Below are positions 20,615 through 25,061 of a stretch of DNA of 64,000 nucleotides, piece by piece. This stretch comes from an uncultured Planctomycetaceae bacterium. GTDB taxonomy: Bacteria > Planctomycetota > Planctomycetia > Isosphaerales > Isosphaeraceae. The DNA lies in the NCBI GenBank assembly GCA_963833985.1, contig CAWIAD010000001.1, positions 3,072,001-3,136,000 on the forward strand, read 5' to 3'. Position 1 is the stretch's first letter, and every line of letters starts with the position of its first letter. Both the position numbers and the translations under genes were made by a program. The notes below the pieces were generated by a model. It did no database searches. It had not been told where the DNA came from and saw only the letters and a list, made by a program, of their open reading frames with translations.

Positions 20615-20850
20615 TGCGAAGACTCGTCGGGATCTCGAAGAGAACCAGGTCCAGCCGCTTGCCACCGGGAACCGATGGACCAGCCGCTGGAAACGAAGCC
20701 TCAGGAATGCGGGGCAGCCATTGAGAGTCTGTCCCACATGGGGAACAATCAGAGGCCGACGGCCCTGGCCAGGTATGCGGAACAAGGGGATGAGACCGGT
20801 GAAACGGGCCTGCCGCTGGCGAGCCTCACGGGTTGACCCTCAAGCCTCTC

Positions 20851-20917
20851 GCGTGGGACAAGATTCCATTCTTGTCTCTTCAAATCTTCTGATGATCCTC
20901 TCGTTTCGTGACAAGAT
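20851..20917. repeat. REP-like inverted-repeat pair; right arm split by the intron (remainder at 24927-24943)
   Basis: Left arm GCGTGGGACAAGATTCCATTCTTGTC (20851-20876); rejoined right arm GACAAGAT|CGGAATCGTGTCCCACG; similar element at 41941. Confidence 0.75.
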
Positions 20918-21081
20918 GTAGAGTCGAGGTGTGGCGCGGTGGGCTCGAGTCGATGGCTCGGCTGGGCCTCGTTTCCACACCCCGCTCATCAAACTGGACG
21001 GGCGGTGTTCCCGCATCCAGCTTTCGGACAAGGCTTGTCTCATCGGTTGAGTTCACACGTTCGCTCACGAAACCATCGCGG

Positions 21082-21681
21082 CTAGGTTCGTTGCAGCTGG
21101 TAAAGATGCAACTCCTGGTGCAGGTATCTGTCAGGGTAGCGTCTGAGCCCCTGACCCGGCACCTTGAACTTCGCACACAACCACTGACGTACCCGGTAGC
21201 GGACGTGGTGGTTGACTTGGCGATAGGCTGGGCTCACCGTTCCGATGCGAAAATAGTTGGACCAACCGCGGAACTTGCGATTGATCCGACCAATCTGCAT
21301 CTCGACGTCCTGTCCAGTGGTCTGGCGCGTCGTCATCGCACTGATCTCGCTGCACAGCCGAATGATCTTCTTCCGCGATGGGCGTGACCCTATGTAGGAT
21401 CGGCCCGTTCGTCGGTCGTAGTTCCGGCCGAGGGTATAACCCAGAAAGTCGAACGTCTCCTCAGGCAGGTGGCACAGCCGCGTCTTGGTCTCGTTCACCG
21501 TTAACTTCAGCCTGGACATCATCTTCCGCATCACCGTCATGGCCTCTTCGGCCGTGCCGCGACAGCAGATGACGAAGTCGTCCGCATAGTTGACGATTCG
21601 CGCGACCAGACGCCGCTCGTGTCCACCAGTCTTCCATCCCTTCACAAATCGTCGCATGTAGATGTTGGACAACAATGGTGA
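21082..21681 (-). pseudogene. ltrA: 3' half of the intron RT/maturase (199 aa)
   Basis: SPLLSNIYM, IVNYADDFVI, KLTVNETKT, FDFLGY and RGWSNYF. Confidence 0.9.
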
Positions 21682-23335
21682 GATCACGCCCCCAACAATG
21701 TTGCGAACTACGTTGTTGGGGGCCTTTCTCAAAAGGGGACGGACTGACCCGATACACGATGCGGACCTCCTGCTCGTCGATCTCGACCTTCTTCACCAAG
21801 GCCCGAACCACCTCCCGTCGCGTGGCCCAGTCCGGCTCTTGCAACCCTTGCGAGACGCGACGTGCGAACTCCTCCAACTGACCGATCACCAGTCGCAATT
21901 CCGCCTCTTGGGCGGCCTCGCCGATTCGTTGTCGATGCTCCTCCGCCAATCTCGAGAGGCGCGTCCTTGCCGCCGAGATCCGGGGCTCGAACTCCGATTT
22001 GTCGAGCAACCCGTCGCCGTAAGCATCGATTAATCGAGAAATCATCTTTTTCACATTATTTATCAATTTGCCGAGATGCTCCACCTCCTGATTCGGCCCG
22101 CCCTGGGCACCCTGCAGCCGCCGCTCGTACTCCTCCCGGACCCGCTCCGGCTCGGACAGGAGACCTCGTAAGTCCTCCCAGACGGCAGCGTCAAGGATAT
22201 CGGTGCGGATCTGCTTGTTCCAGCAGAGGCGCTGCCCGCCGAAACGATAGGCGTCAGAGCCCGTGCAACGGTAGTACGCGTAGCGGACCCTACCCTTGCC
22301 CTCGAACGCGGCTCGGCTCGTCGGCTTGCCGTAGCAGCCGTAGCCGCAGCGCTTGCAGACGACCAGGCCCTGGAGCAGATATCGGCCACCGCCGGGCCGG
22401 TCGCGACGGCGTTGCCGGTTCTCTTCAAGCTGGGCCTGGACAGCCAGGAAGAGGTCTTCGCTCACCAGCCCGGGGACTTCAATGAAGATTTGATCTTCCG
22501 AGGATGTATCAACCCGTGAGACCGGTCGCCGGGAGTGTTCGGGGCGGCCTCGCTGCGGGCGGAGGCGTTGAGGTTTGAACTCACCTGAGCGCGTCTTGCC
22601 GAAGGCCGCGGTCCCCTTGTAGGCAGGGTTCTTGAGGATCAACCAGACCGTCGCGCGATCCCAGGCCGATTTCCCGGTCCGCGTCGGGATACTGTCGCGC
22701 CGGAGGCGTCGGCACACCTCGCCGATCGAGCACCGTTCCTGACCCACCCATTCGAAGATCTTCCGCACGACCCGGGACTCTTCAGCGAGGACCTGATAAC
22801 GCGCCTCGCCACCTCCCTCGTGCTTGCCGATGTAACGGTAGCCGTACGGTGCGCCGCTGAGGACGTTGACCGAACCGCGGCGGGCGGCGTGTTGCTTGCC
22901 CCTGCGGCAACGCTCCATGATCTTGGCGCGCTCGTATTCCGCGATCATTCCCTGGACCTGAAGCAGCAGGTCGGCTTCCGGACTGCGGCCGACGGGGTTG
23001 CGCAAGAAGACGACCTCGACACCGCACCGGATAAGTTCCTCAAGGATCAAGACCTGATAGGCATACTTGCGTGAAAGTCGATCCGGATCGAGCATATAGA
23101 GGCGGTCGATGGCTCCAGCGGCGGCTTGGTCCCGAAGTCGCTCGAGTGCCGGTCGGGCCAGGATGTAACCGCTGACGCCGTCGTCCACGAAGTGCAGTTC
23201 GGGCTCGCATTCCAAGCCATCAGTGGCGATCCGCTGAGTGACCGCCTCGAGCTGGCTGGCGATCGTGTCCTCCTTCTCCTGCTGCTCCCCCGAAACCCGG
23301 GCGTAGAGCGCCACGCGGAGATTGTCCGTGATCAT
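21461..23335 (-). CDS. Large serine recombinase; last 73 aa read out of frame from RT DNA
   Basis: ALYARVS (catalytic Ser), DDGVSG..RPALERL, DRLSR, GAPYGYRY, LKNPAYKG, YLLQGLVVCKRCG...YYRC zinc ribbon, coiled coil. Confidence 0.93.
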   Translation of the reverse strand: MITDNLRVALYARVSGEQQEKEDTIASQLEAVTQRIATDGLECEPELHFVDDGVSGYILARPALERLRDQAAAGAIDRLYMLDPDRLSRKYAYQVLILEELIRCGVEVVFLRNPVGRSPEADLLLQVQGMIAEYERAKIMERCRRGKQHAARRGSVNVLSGAPYGYRYIGKHEGGGEARYQVLAEESRVVRKIFEWVGQERCSIGEVCRRLRRDSIPTRTGKSAWDRATVWLILKNPAYKGTAAFGKTRSGEFKPQRLRPQRGRPEHSRRPVSRVDTSSEDQIFIEVPGLVSEDLFLAVQAQLEENRQRRRDRPGGGRYLLQGLVVCKRCGYGCYGKPTSRAAFEGKGRVRYAYYRCTGSDAYRFGGQRLCWNKQIRTDILDAAVWEDLRGLLSEPERVREEYERRLQGAQGGPNQEVEHLGKLINNVKKMISRLIDAYGDGLLDKSEFEPRISAARTRLSRLAEEHRQRIGEAAQEAELRLVIGQLEEFARRVSQGLQEPDWATRREVVRALVKKVEIDEQEVRIVYRVSPSPFEKGPQQRSSQHCWGRDLTIVVQHLHATICEGMEDWWTRAASGRANRQLCGRLRHLLSRHGRRGHDGDAEDDVQAEVNGERDQDAAVPPA

Positions 23336-23700
23336 GGTTTGTCAAACCCCCCCGACCTTGGACTGGATAGTGTGGACCACAGTCGCGTGGTTGCGGCTGG
23401 GTCGCGGCCGATCCAGGCGCTGCGAAACGACCGGGATCAAGACCTGATATGCACGCGCGATCAATTGCTCCTGAAGCCGAGTGAACTCGAAGTGGCGGGT
23501 GACAGGAGGACTGAACGTGGGCCTCCGTGGGGACGTGATCATGTCGACTCCTCCTCTCCGAGAGCGCGGCCGCCAGCCTGCCTTGGATCGGGATCGAGTC
23601 GGGGCTGCCATCCGTGCCCGTACTTCGGTCGAAGCCGCGATCTGGAAATGACAGAGTCAGGAATCAGGGACGATTTTGCAACATTGTTGGGGGCGTGATC
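21682..23700 (-). mobile_element. About 2.0-kb large-serine-recombinase integrative element with 23-bp perfect inverted ends and GATC core
   Basis: GATCACGCCCCCAACAATGTTGC at 21682-21704 and its exact reverse complement at 23678-23700; removal restores the RT frame. Confidence 0.88.
23342..23542 (-). CDS. Small basic 66-aa protein upstream of the recombinase (candidate directionality/accessory factor)
   Basis: Strong GGAGGAG RBS before ATG 23542; stop lies 6 nt before the recombinase ATG. Confidence 0.6.
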   Translation of the reverse strand: MITSPRRPTFSPPVTRHFEFTRLQEQLIARAYQVLIPVVSQRLDRPRPSRNHATVVHTIQSKVGGV

Positions 23701-24395
23701 GGTGCACCTTGCGGTGTACCCATCCCCTGGTCTTTATTCCGGGTCGTTCGATGGCGCTGCCCCTTCCCGTCGGTTTCTTCCACCGGTGTTTCCAGCCACA
23801 TCTTGATCAGCCGCAGGACGCGACCGTCGCTGATGCGCCGTGACGCCGATTTCATTAACTCGGAATGGGGTATGCTATCGAAATATCCAGATAAGTCCGC
23901 GTCCACCACCTCGGTGTGCCCCGTCTTGAGCAGCCGTTCGACTTCGCGGACGGCGTCCAGGGCGCTGCGCTCCGGGCGGTAGGCGTGTTGTTCCGGCTCC
24001 AGGTCGGCCTCGAAGATCGGCTCCAAGACCAGCACCGCAGCCATCTGCACCACACGATCCTTGATGCAAGGAATGCCCAGCGGCCTTTGCTTGCCGTCCC
24101 CTTTGGGGATGTACACGCGCCGCACCGCCTGGGGTTGATACGTCTCCTTACGAAGTTGTTCCGCCAGTTCGTCCAGCCATCGTTCCTTCCCGGACGCCTC
24201 GATGTCGGCGAAACTCTGGCCGTCGATCCCCGGTGCGCCGCCGTTGGCACGGCAGCGTTCGTAGGCGAATCCCAGAACGTCACGTCGATAAATCTTGTCG
24301 TACAGGACGTAGAACCGATAGTTGGGCGCGTTCTTCGCTTTGGTGTGCAACGCCGTCTGCAACTTCCCGACCTTCAGTGGAGGTGATAGACTCAC
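23697..24395 (-). pseudogene. ltrA: 5' half of the intron RT/maturase (233 aa)
   Basis: RFYVLYDKI, GAPGIDG, VRRVYIPK..GKQRPLGIP..DRVVQ, VVDADLSGYFDSIPH and GTPQGAPI. Confidence 0.9.
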
Positions 24396-25061
24396 GCCAA
24401 TCTCCCGGCTGTCTGCCGCTTGTTGCGTTGACCTTGAACCAAGGCCCCTTCCCTCGACCGGAGTTACCCGGCGTCGACGGTACTACGGGCCTCTCCGCCA
24501 CCCCAGGCAGCCCGGCCGGTCCCTCGCGGGCGTCCGGTTGAGGGTCACGCGCCCTCACCGCTTGGGGTTTCCCGTGTTGTGTTGATCTCCGTGTGCCGAC
24601 ATGCCGTCGTCAATACCCCGGTGGCCCGCTGGGTTCTGATCGCTCGTGGGGCGGCCTATTCCAACCGTTTCCCTTTCATCCCCAGCGACGGCGGCCTTCC
24701 CCATATTCCAGCAAGGTCGGCGACCACATTGGACTTTTCGAGGCCTGCTCAACGTTCACTCGCGTTACGGCCTGTCGGTTCGCTGCATCGCCAAGCGACA
24801 CATCTGTCTCGAAGGCTCCGACGGTTTCGTCTCCTCCACCGCCGCTCCGATAGCTACCGGCTGGAGCGACCCAGTTGCCGGGTGGGAGTTACACCCACTG
24901 AAGACCAACACCTTTCCACGGCGCACCGGAATCGTGTCCCACGAGGCCGGACCTCATTGCATGGACTCTGAGAAGTTTGACGCAGATGAACGAACGAATC
25001 AAGAGTACAGGTGTTCCGAACCACGTGCTGTCTTTCATTCAGCACAGACCGGCCGCGGGGC

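Follow-up and report, generated by a model that had tools for sequence, protein, structure and literature searches.

What has split the reverse transcriptase (RT) gene of a group II intron into two halves, and did it reach that site by chance? The question is raised by the window examined here, the whole 64,000-nucleotide stretch of DNA from an uncultured Planctomycetaceae bacterium (GenBank GCA_963833985.1, contig CAWIAD010000001.1, positions 3,072,001 to 3,136,000), in which a segment of about 2 kb encoding a large serine recombinase interrupts an intron RT gene. Unless another locus or contig is named, coordinates are positions of the window, and all annotated features lie on the minus strand. 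The best explanation, with a probability that we put at roughly 0.75, is a parasite of group II introns: a minimal, self-mobile element comprising two genes. A preliminary description of the locus had proposed such a hyperparasite of intron RTs, along with several details that are taken up below.

The segment (21682-23700, 2,019 bp) is bounded by a perfect terminal inverted repeat of 23 bp (26 bp allowing one mismatch), the longest among 72 inverted pairs in 8 kb. The genome contains 11 full copies at 99.9-100% identity, plus one fragment at 81%. Nine of the 11 occupy the same site of the same intron, with the recombinase in the sense of the RT in seven and in the opposite sense in two; the other two are off-target, outside the host intron. 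The ends of one off-target copy read C-AT-C / G-AT-G, so that the crossover core is the AT dinucleotide. Those of the second read T-AT-C / G-TT-G, indicating that a core mismatch can be tolerated. The ends of homologues, mapped by arm profile, likewise have just 2 bp in common. The length, the repeat and the presence of a large serine recombinase and a 66-residue open reading frame (ORF), all given in the preliminary description, are confirmed here, the genes by Pfam and ORF analysis. Its 4-bp GATC core is replaced by the 2-bp AT. From core to core, the element measures 2,017 bp (21683-23699), as defined by the 11 copies and the end mapping, and the predicted circle would have 2,015 bp. The left end (attL, 23678-23700) comprises an RT arm, the AT core at 23698-23699 and an attP arm, and the right end (attR, 21682-21704) an attP arm, the AT core at 21683-21684 and an RT arm; both were assigned from the repeat and the end comparison. 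On this sequence evidence the element is real and recently active, and the recent near-identical copies lend indirect support to catalytic activity on att sites. An assembly artefact was rejected because of the 11 copies, the natural empty sites and the homologues, and a DDE element was rejected as the identity of the 2-kb segment. Two contigs of the genome (C1:1 and C2:1) both start inside an element-bearing intron, so that a twelfth copy is probably what interrupted the assembly.

The host (20918-24926) is a group II intron, as judged from its GUGYG start, domain I, domains V and VI and RT/maturase ORF. It runs from 5' GTGCG to 3' CTAC and measures 1,994 nt without the element and 4,009 nt with it, the ends being taken from 13 genomic copies; Rfam places D1D4-4 at 24760-24900, and intact copies match RF00029. 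Domains V and VI occupy 20918-21023 (two-hairpin fold, z=-3.7; RF00029 on the empty copies). The N-terminal half of the RT/maturase (23697-24395, 233 residues; RVT_1 1-124, TIGR04416 3-186) ends in GTPQGAP-I. The C-terminal half (21082-21681, 199 residues; RVT_1 126-205, GIIM, TIGR04416 187-352) starts with SPLLSN and carries the YADD motif and the maturase domain. Thirteen 5' ends of this intron are found in the genome: nine belong to complete introns with the element, one is followed by a contig break at the element end, one belongs to a decayed intron with a remnant, and two to empty introns, which places the element or a remnant in 11 of 13 copies. Both empty copies encode a 432-residue RT carrying GTPQGAPISPLL. 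The empty allele is therefore natural, and the earlier claim that removal of the segment restores a 432-residue RT (233 + 199) holds for these copies. The same genome also has an unrelated RT in which the equivalent position is CT, and this gene carries no element. One of the empty introns (L083, contig C2:2152285) has N changed to S in the conserved LLSN at intron position 1247, inside the outer motif of the target; this single case is possibly an escape allele.

Does the wider family use the same target? A scan of one genome per species returned at least 548 relatives, of which the best 79 loci were examined. The ends were located by a profile of the att arm, and 52 loci were readable at both ends with flank. 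To pass the strict RT test, one flank had to read PQG-x-x and the opposite flank S/T-P-x-L-x-N, both in exact codon phase. An RT is split at the same codon in 33 of the 52 loci (orientations 17 and 16), and 0 of 3,034 shifted-end controls meet the RT motif. The tabulation of homologue flanks that had been suggested as a check thus finds RT enrichment among the loci examined. The other loci show the same RT half on both sides (4, or 5 with L041), an RT on one side (2) or failure of the strict motif at both ends (13). For the 27 loci beyond the 52, an RT lies on the readable side in 10 and not in 8, and 9 are uninformative. By their record titles, the clean RT insertions come from Planctomycetota, Chloroflexota, Pseudomonadota and Acidobacteriota, which makes at least four phyla. 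The host RTs are diverse, with a median identity of 36% over the 25 residues before the site (30 loci), and the host introns of the relatives belong to several Rfam domain I types. The loci are not independent, several being from one genome or genus. One genome (G001) has the same element in a sulfatase gene and in RTs of two types, with the same intron occupied in both orientations, and another (G004) has five RT insertions in three different RT N-halves, all in one orientation. Judged from these flanks, targeting of the RT motif by the element family is very probable. The hyperparasite proposal of the preliminary description therefore stands as regards preference, including different RTs within one genome, but not as regards exclusivity, with two of 11 local copies off-target and a quarter of the 52 loci failing the strict motif.

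Off-target sites include genes for a sulfatase, a Fic protein and a GNAT protein as well as non-coding DNA. The 13 strict-motif failures comprise one RT by Pfam, two IS256-type transposases, one sulfatase, one Fic gene, two domain V-like sites with weak support, two sites that look repeat-like by eye and four without assignment. Further flanks are presumably GIY-YIG (L054), IS200 (L070) and REP (repetitive extragenic palindrome; L006, L010 and L012). The members of one branch are inserted in DDE transposase genes, namely L057 and L061 (IS256 by Pfam) and, weakly or by eye, L062, L049 and L032. Pfam leaves the L049 flank (IS5 by eye) unnamed, gives L032 a weak rve match below the cut-off (E 0.004) and has no hit for L068 and L062. 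Two more members, L035:3422-5413 and L067:3642-5614, have CG cores and an inner arm resembling intron domain V. These two appear to sit in the catalytic domain of the ribozyme (domain V); for L067 this is based on a match that is weak and partial (E 0.26), for L035 on inspection by eye. An intact RT and domain I lie upstream of the element in L067. A quick tree of 58 rows, supported by the Shimodaira-Hasegawa-like approximate likelihood-ratio test (SH-aLRT) only and built without loci having frameshifted recombinases, scatters the RT-target label throughout. The transposase-associated branch has a support of 98, and the domain V pair falls in another branch with 100. The family is patchy among related genomes, with a match in 9 of 41. 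Its hosts include a cultured one, Singulisphaera acidiphila DSM 18658 (L003). It also matches 32 plasmid records, one of which adjoins an annotated RT fragment. On plasmid pWW53, a TOL plasmid, a member lies between toluate dioxygenase genes and further recombinase genes (L145:4001-8505).

The aligned ends show entry at the codon after PQG-x-x through crossover at a 2-bp core, in either orientation, which cuts the RT in two. Core sequences at this fixed codon are AT, CT/AG and GT/AC, and they are unlike between the two ends in 19 of the 52 loci, which argues for exchange of a 2-nt overhang rather than target duplication; a 4-bp target duplication was rejected. When joined, the two ends (attP) give an almost perfect palindrome, and its inner 8 bp are similar to the target codons. 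These 8 bp agree with the N-side target arm at no fewer than five positions in 23 of 33 loci, and attP read through spells G-V-I-T-P where the RT itself has G-V-I-S-P. Members at other targets have a changed inner arm that is like the respective target and keep the outer motif. On the C-side arm of the target, in the A-N codons of LLAN, this outer motif is found again, displaced by 5 bp towards the core; codon constraint confounds the comparison there. Serine integrases typically have such an offset, the outer (zinc-domain) motif lying 5 bp nearer the core in attB than in attP. The 5-bp offset was not found in the accessible portion of PMC5499577. The base at target position +16 was considered as the cause of orientation and rejected, since it has no such effect across the family.

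The recombinase body (21683-23335, 551 codons) has the domain order of a large serine recombinase, with a catalytic serine domain, a recombinase domain, a zinc ribbon and a coiled coil, as read from Pfam, structure models and frame analysis. PF00239, PF07508 and PF13408 (Resolvase, Recombinase, Zn-ribbon) all score above cut-off, and Y11/R13/S15, D85/R86/R89 and four Cys residues are invariant in 50 recombinases. The model matches solved integrases at 15-18% identity, the best structural matches being SPbeta, phiC31, Bxb1 and A118/LI. The frame has no stop inside the element. In the window copy, it continues 76 codons beyond residue 548 into RT DNA, reading on to 21461, and among the integrated copies of this genome the unrelated sequence that follows position 548 ranges from 25 to 76 residues.

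The C-terminus that is missing from the body is encoded at the opposite end of the element, in 155 bp upstream of the small ORF, a feature overlooked in the preliminary description, which had listed just the recombinase and the 66-residue ORF. This tail of 52 codons (23539-23697), recognised by its open frame and substitution pattern, is in frame only on joined ends, and its stop overlaps the start of the small ORF (ATGA). In 45 of 46 members, the recombinase frame is in phase 0 where it exits at the right end. The tail frame, counted from the base that directly follows the left core, is open for at least 40 residues in 51 of 56 distinct left ends, compared with 1 and 11 of 56 for the other frames. 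It contains a conserved motif and shows coding-type substitutions (mismatches 928/574/1399 by codon position). Joining the ends yields a recombinase of 603 residues, and the two genes plus a 6-nt gap amount to exactly 2,015 nt, that is, the whole predicted circle, with no cargo. The frames thus place attP inside the recombinase gene, the integrated form encoding the 551-residue body with a junk tail and the joined ends the 603-residue enzyme. A natural read-through protein of a close relative (P0065, one of 35 protein-search hits) crosses the junction into the tail, and a second protein search for read-through forms returned only P0065 among four hits. The tail is modelled in P0065 as a β strand following a disordered linker, with a predicted local distance difference test (pLDDT) of 78, and the model of the truncated recombinase ends in disorder. 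A distant three-gene relative (L144:2163-3242) has two unlike copies head to tail with a complete attP-like junction, which suggests that the end of an element may itself be a target. A 20-nt direct repeat (95%) at 23044-23063 and 23434-23453, in the recombinase gene and the small ORF, respectively, reads AYQVLI in both and is lost in distant relatives.

The conserved 66-residue protein (23342-23542) is a candidate recombination directionality factor (RDF), on the basis of conservation and a modelled complex. Motif-bearing frames from the 79 loci provide 57 distinct sequences, with R22 and Y32 invariant in the 42 that were aligned. The protein has no match in Pfam or NCBIfam. An atlas search returned only unnamed clusters at 0.87-0.88, which serve as a lead, and a representative search 36 unnamed relatives. 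Its modelled complex with the recombinase scores 0.65, the best of three controls 0.00; 116 of 157 solved complexes attain the mark set for this score, as do 2 of 215 mismatched pairs. The runs agree in at least 71% of contacts, and the pLDDT of the partner is at least 62. The interface involves recombinase residues 376-406 and 490-532, corresponding to both coiled-coil ends and the last strand. The model supports binding of the small protein at the DBD2-coiled-coil junction, where directionality factors bind. Verified RDFs sit at this junction, mostly adding a β strand, and C-terminal extensions or strands are predicted to block the RDF site, according to the available text of PMC12286644.

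How could such an element spread? The element would excise as a circle and re-integrate at another RT site, and excision after replication would amount to copying. Excision would be enabled by the small protein docking at the junction of the zinc domain and the coiled coil. The circle-only tail would form a β strand at or near the site of the small protein and exclude it, so that the full-length enzyme encoded by the circle would act as an integrase and the state of the DNA would set the direction. That the tail and the small protein compete and thereby set direction has, in view of the models, about an even chance of being right. As an intron family expands, the element would spread by occupying its copies, and every insertion would take away one source of RT; rare off-target sites and recombination between copies, with chimeric RT halves, would be by-products. 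In G001, two copies of opposite orientation about 13 kb apart on contig C63 (L089 and L094) have their flanks swapped and form reciprocal chimeras of two intron RTs. The swapped flanks and the loci with the same RT half on both sides would be explained if copies recombined with one another, or by misassembly. Excision at L089 and L094 would leave hybrid introns. The mechanism as a whole, including circle, RDF and tail switch, is held tentatively, at even odds or slightly below. A broader picture has somewhat less than an even chance: a cross-phylum family of two-gene, fully coding 2-kb circles living on mobile elements, mostly at the RT motif, with derived lineages retargeted to domain V or DDE transposases through the inner 8 bp of attP, and with a circle-encoded C-terminal strand that blocks the element's own RDF, the integrated copy being able to excise. 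Such a family would cap intron expansions and shuffle RT halves.

Several observations weigh against this account. In thirteen of the 52 loci, neither end satisfies the strict RT motif. The five RT copies of G004 all have one orientation, so that orientation is not always random, and the shifted outer motif is missing from the N-side target arm. The complex was modelled with a tail-less recombinase and custom alignments, and the model output contains no contacts for the tail, which leaves its competition with the small protein hypothetical. False-positive RDF predictions are reported in the consulted part of PMC12286644. As to the joined ends, P0065 comes from a contig of 1,509 bp and could derive from a tandem copy. 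A joined-ends probe found one stretch in metagenome contigs, a tandem of two unlike copies from a distant relative, with read-through, and none in viral contigs. Joined ends in assembled DNA represent either a circle or a tandem, and recombination, excision and the circle themselves are unobserved. Among 20 candidate sequencing runs, none contained half of the query words, and the four compared, which were shallow contigs, had no joint for either the empty site or the circle, a result of little weight at that depth. Finally, a sigma-70 promoter scan of the element found 0 sites, which leaves expression unexplained.

The multiple copies might instead reflect movement of the intron. The element would have inserted only two or three times, after which the 4-kb composite of intron and element retrohomed with RT supplied in trans from the two intact copies. 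Composite introns with exact ends do lie at separate sites, and mobilisation of ORF-less introns in trans is described for Thermosynechococcus in the available text of PMC2882425. Furthermore, intron position 1245, 15 nt from the insertion site, is C in all seven composites with the recombinase in RT sense (orientation A) and A in both composites of the opposite orientation (B) and both empty copies (Fisher p=0.028 for 7:0 vs 0:2), a post hoc comparison. This single-nucleotide polymorphism (SNP), however, was chosen after the fact among about five informative sites; the base does not set orientation across the family, and other intron SNPs give incompatible groupings. The seven A composites have nine segregating sites in the intron and two in the element (p=0.038). 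For twintrons, higher diversity of the host intron than of the inner element has been read as independent insertion, again in the accessible part of PMC2882425. The off-target copies and the different RTs also show autonomous movement. We therefore consider this route unlikely as the main one. The suggestion in the preliminary description that retrohoming carries the element along keeps the orientation-linked SNP on its side and is opposed by the lower divergence of the element. Gene conversion between intron copies, perhaps initiated by a recombinase cut at the empty site and copying the element with a short flank, would account for the marker nearest the site co-segregating with orientation when distant ones do not and for intron SNPs that are not tree-like; the reciprocal chimeras of G001 show that copies do recombine. 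It leaves the off-target copies and the entry into unrelated RTs unexplained, and it depends on one marker that consensus errors in near-identical repeats could mimic, and so is improbable as the principal process. The diversity pattern, together with the insertions in G001 and G004, points to autonomous insertion as the main route, to which conversion or hitch-hiking may add.

Could the element instead serve its host? Regulated restoration of gene integrity is known from XisF and the skin elements, and a host or intron might keep the element to silence the RT and excise it on a signal. Precise excision would restore the 432-residue frame, 11 of 13 intron copies are occupied, and a candidate excision factor is present, as the modelled complex suggests. 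The many recent copies, off-target sites, both orientations, decayed remnants and patchy spread among relatives fit a selfish element, however. With two RTs intact the switch is not fully off, and no regulator or signal was found, so a domesticated switch seems very unlikely. Nothing points to host control of the reversible off-switch that the preliminary description had suggested. A transposon of low specificity that merely survives in introns where insertions are harmless is compatible with the copies in the sulfatase, Fic and GNAT genes and in non-coding DNA, but survival bias cannot account for one codon receiving 33 of 52 insertions in RTs with a local identity of about 36%. As the main cause, this explanation is refuted, and we give it next to no weight.

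Some features of the surroundings merit description. The 5' exon of the intron (24927-24943) is the first half of a palindromic repeat with an inverted partner at 20852-20867, identified by a genome motif count; the repeat flanks the window intron at 24927-24943 and 20850-20917. The exon motif occurs 35 times in the genome, and under a strict pattern 9 occurrences are followed by an intron start. We take the repeat into which the intron homes to be REP-like; one simple pattern found no motif of REP-associated transposases. Candidate complements of the 5' exon are found at intron positions 217 and 264. One intron copy (C2:1011493) lies at an unrelated site, outside the palindromic repeat family. 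One element-bearing intron copy is split by a further insertion (C2:2147541-2148825), which is about 1.3 kb long and, to the eye, transposase-like. Adjoining the off-target copy on C1, frames at L080:4705-5716 resemble, by eye, an HNH-type nuclease and a helix-turn-helix protein.

The locus offers a testable answer to the question of what limits the expansion of bacterial group II introns, since a single element has cost 11 of 13 copies their RT. It also provides a natural test, with both forms encoded by one locus, of a rule that has been proposed and is unproven (PMC12286644, as far as its available text goes), namely that the RDF site of serine integrases is blocked by C-terminal strands. 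Relatives with different inner attP arms and targets constitute a natural series on changes of serine-integrase specificity, which is useful for genome engineering. Many RT genes annotated as fragmented are explained, and a route to chimeric intron RTs is shown.

A literature search found no description of this element family. The text and eight supplements of Durrant et al. (PMC10083194) name no RT or intron target within the searchable content; an image-only histogram of target Pfams lies outside it and might list RVT_1. The TndX clade and DUF4368 are described in the accessible part of 10.1101/2021.11.05.467528, and Pfam has no DUF4368 hit in the recombinase described here. How, then, does the element compare with known systems? 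Tn4451/Tn4453 (TnpX) and Tn5397 (TndX) have a GA core, a relaxed target and resistance or mobilisation cargo. The present element shares with them a single large serine recombinase outside a phage, many sites, a 2-bp core and presumably a circle, and its 11 copies, two of them off-target, are consistent with movement to many sites by the recombinase only. It differs in its 2-kb size, in the absence of such cargo, of a GA core and of a relaxed target, in a palindromic attP inside the recombinase gene, in its small partner gene and in the choice of one conserved codon of a mobile-element gene. IS607 family members are likewise about 2 kb long, with two genes, a serine recombinase and a 2-bp core, but they encode a small serine recombinase, TnpA, together with TnpB, whereas the body of 551 residues here has a zinc ribbon and no TnpB partner; NF033518 (IS607 TnpA) scores 26.3 bits on it, well short of its cut-off, 110.

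SSV1-type integrases and mycobacteriophage integration-dependent immunity place attP within a gene of the element, so that the protein differs between the free and the integrated state, as predicted here. Those systems involve tyrosine integrases or repressors, however, whereas this serine recombinase keeps its catalytic and DNA-binding domains and swaps only the C-terminal tail; SSV-type elements also target tRNA genes rather than an RT gene. Group II twintrons and insertion sequences in intron ORFs of Thermosynechococcus (TeI3/TeI4, TeI4g::ISEL2f) similarly feature an inner mobile element at a fixed intron-ORF site in several copies, according to the available text of PMC2882425. The present case differs in that the inner element is mobilised by a DNA recombinase and not spliced out, and that its site is a conserved RT motif across phyla. 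Phage serine integrases and their RDFs (SPbeta, phiC31, Bxb1, A118/LI) resemble it in domain order, in a small partner modelled at the DBD2-coiled-coil junction and, as far as the C-side arm is concerned, in an outer motif whose position differs between attP and attB. Unlike them, it has no phage genes, a symmetric attP, insertion in both orientations, multiple copies, tolerance of mismatched cores and a gene split by integration. Defining features of the TnpX/TndX, phage integrase and SSV-type systems are in each case missing here, and the element is of mixed likeness, combining the movement of TnpX/TndX with the att logic of phage integrases and a probable RDF, and with a gene split like that of SSV.

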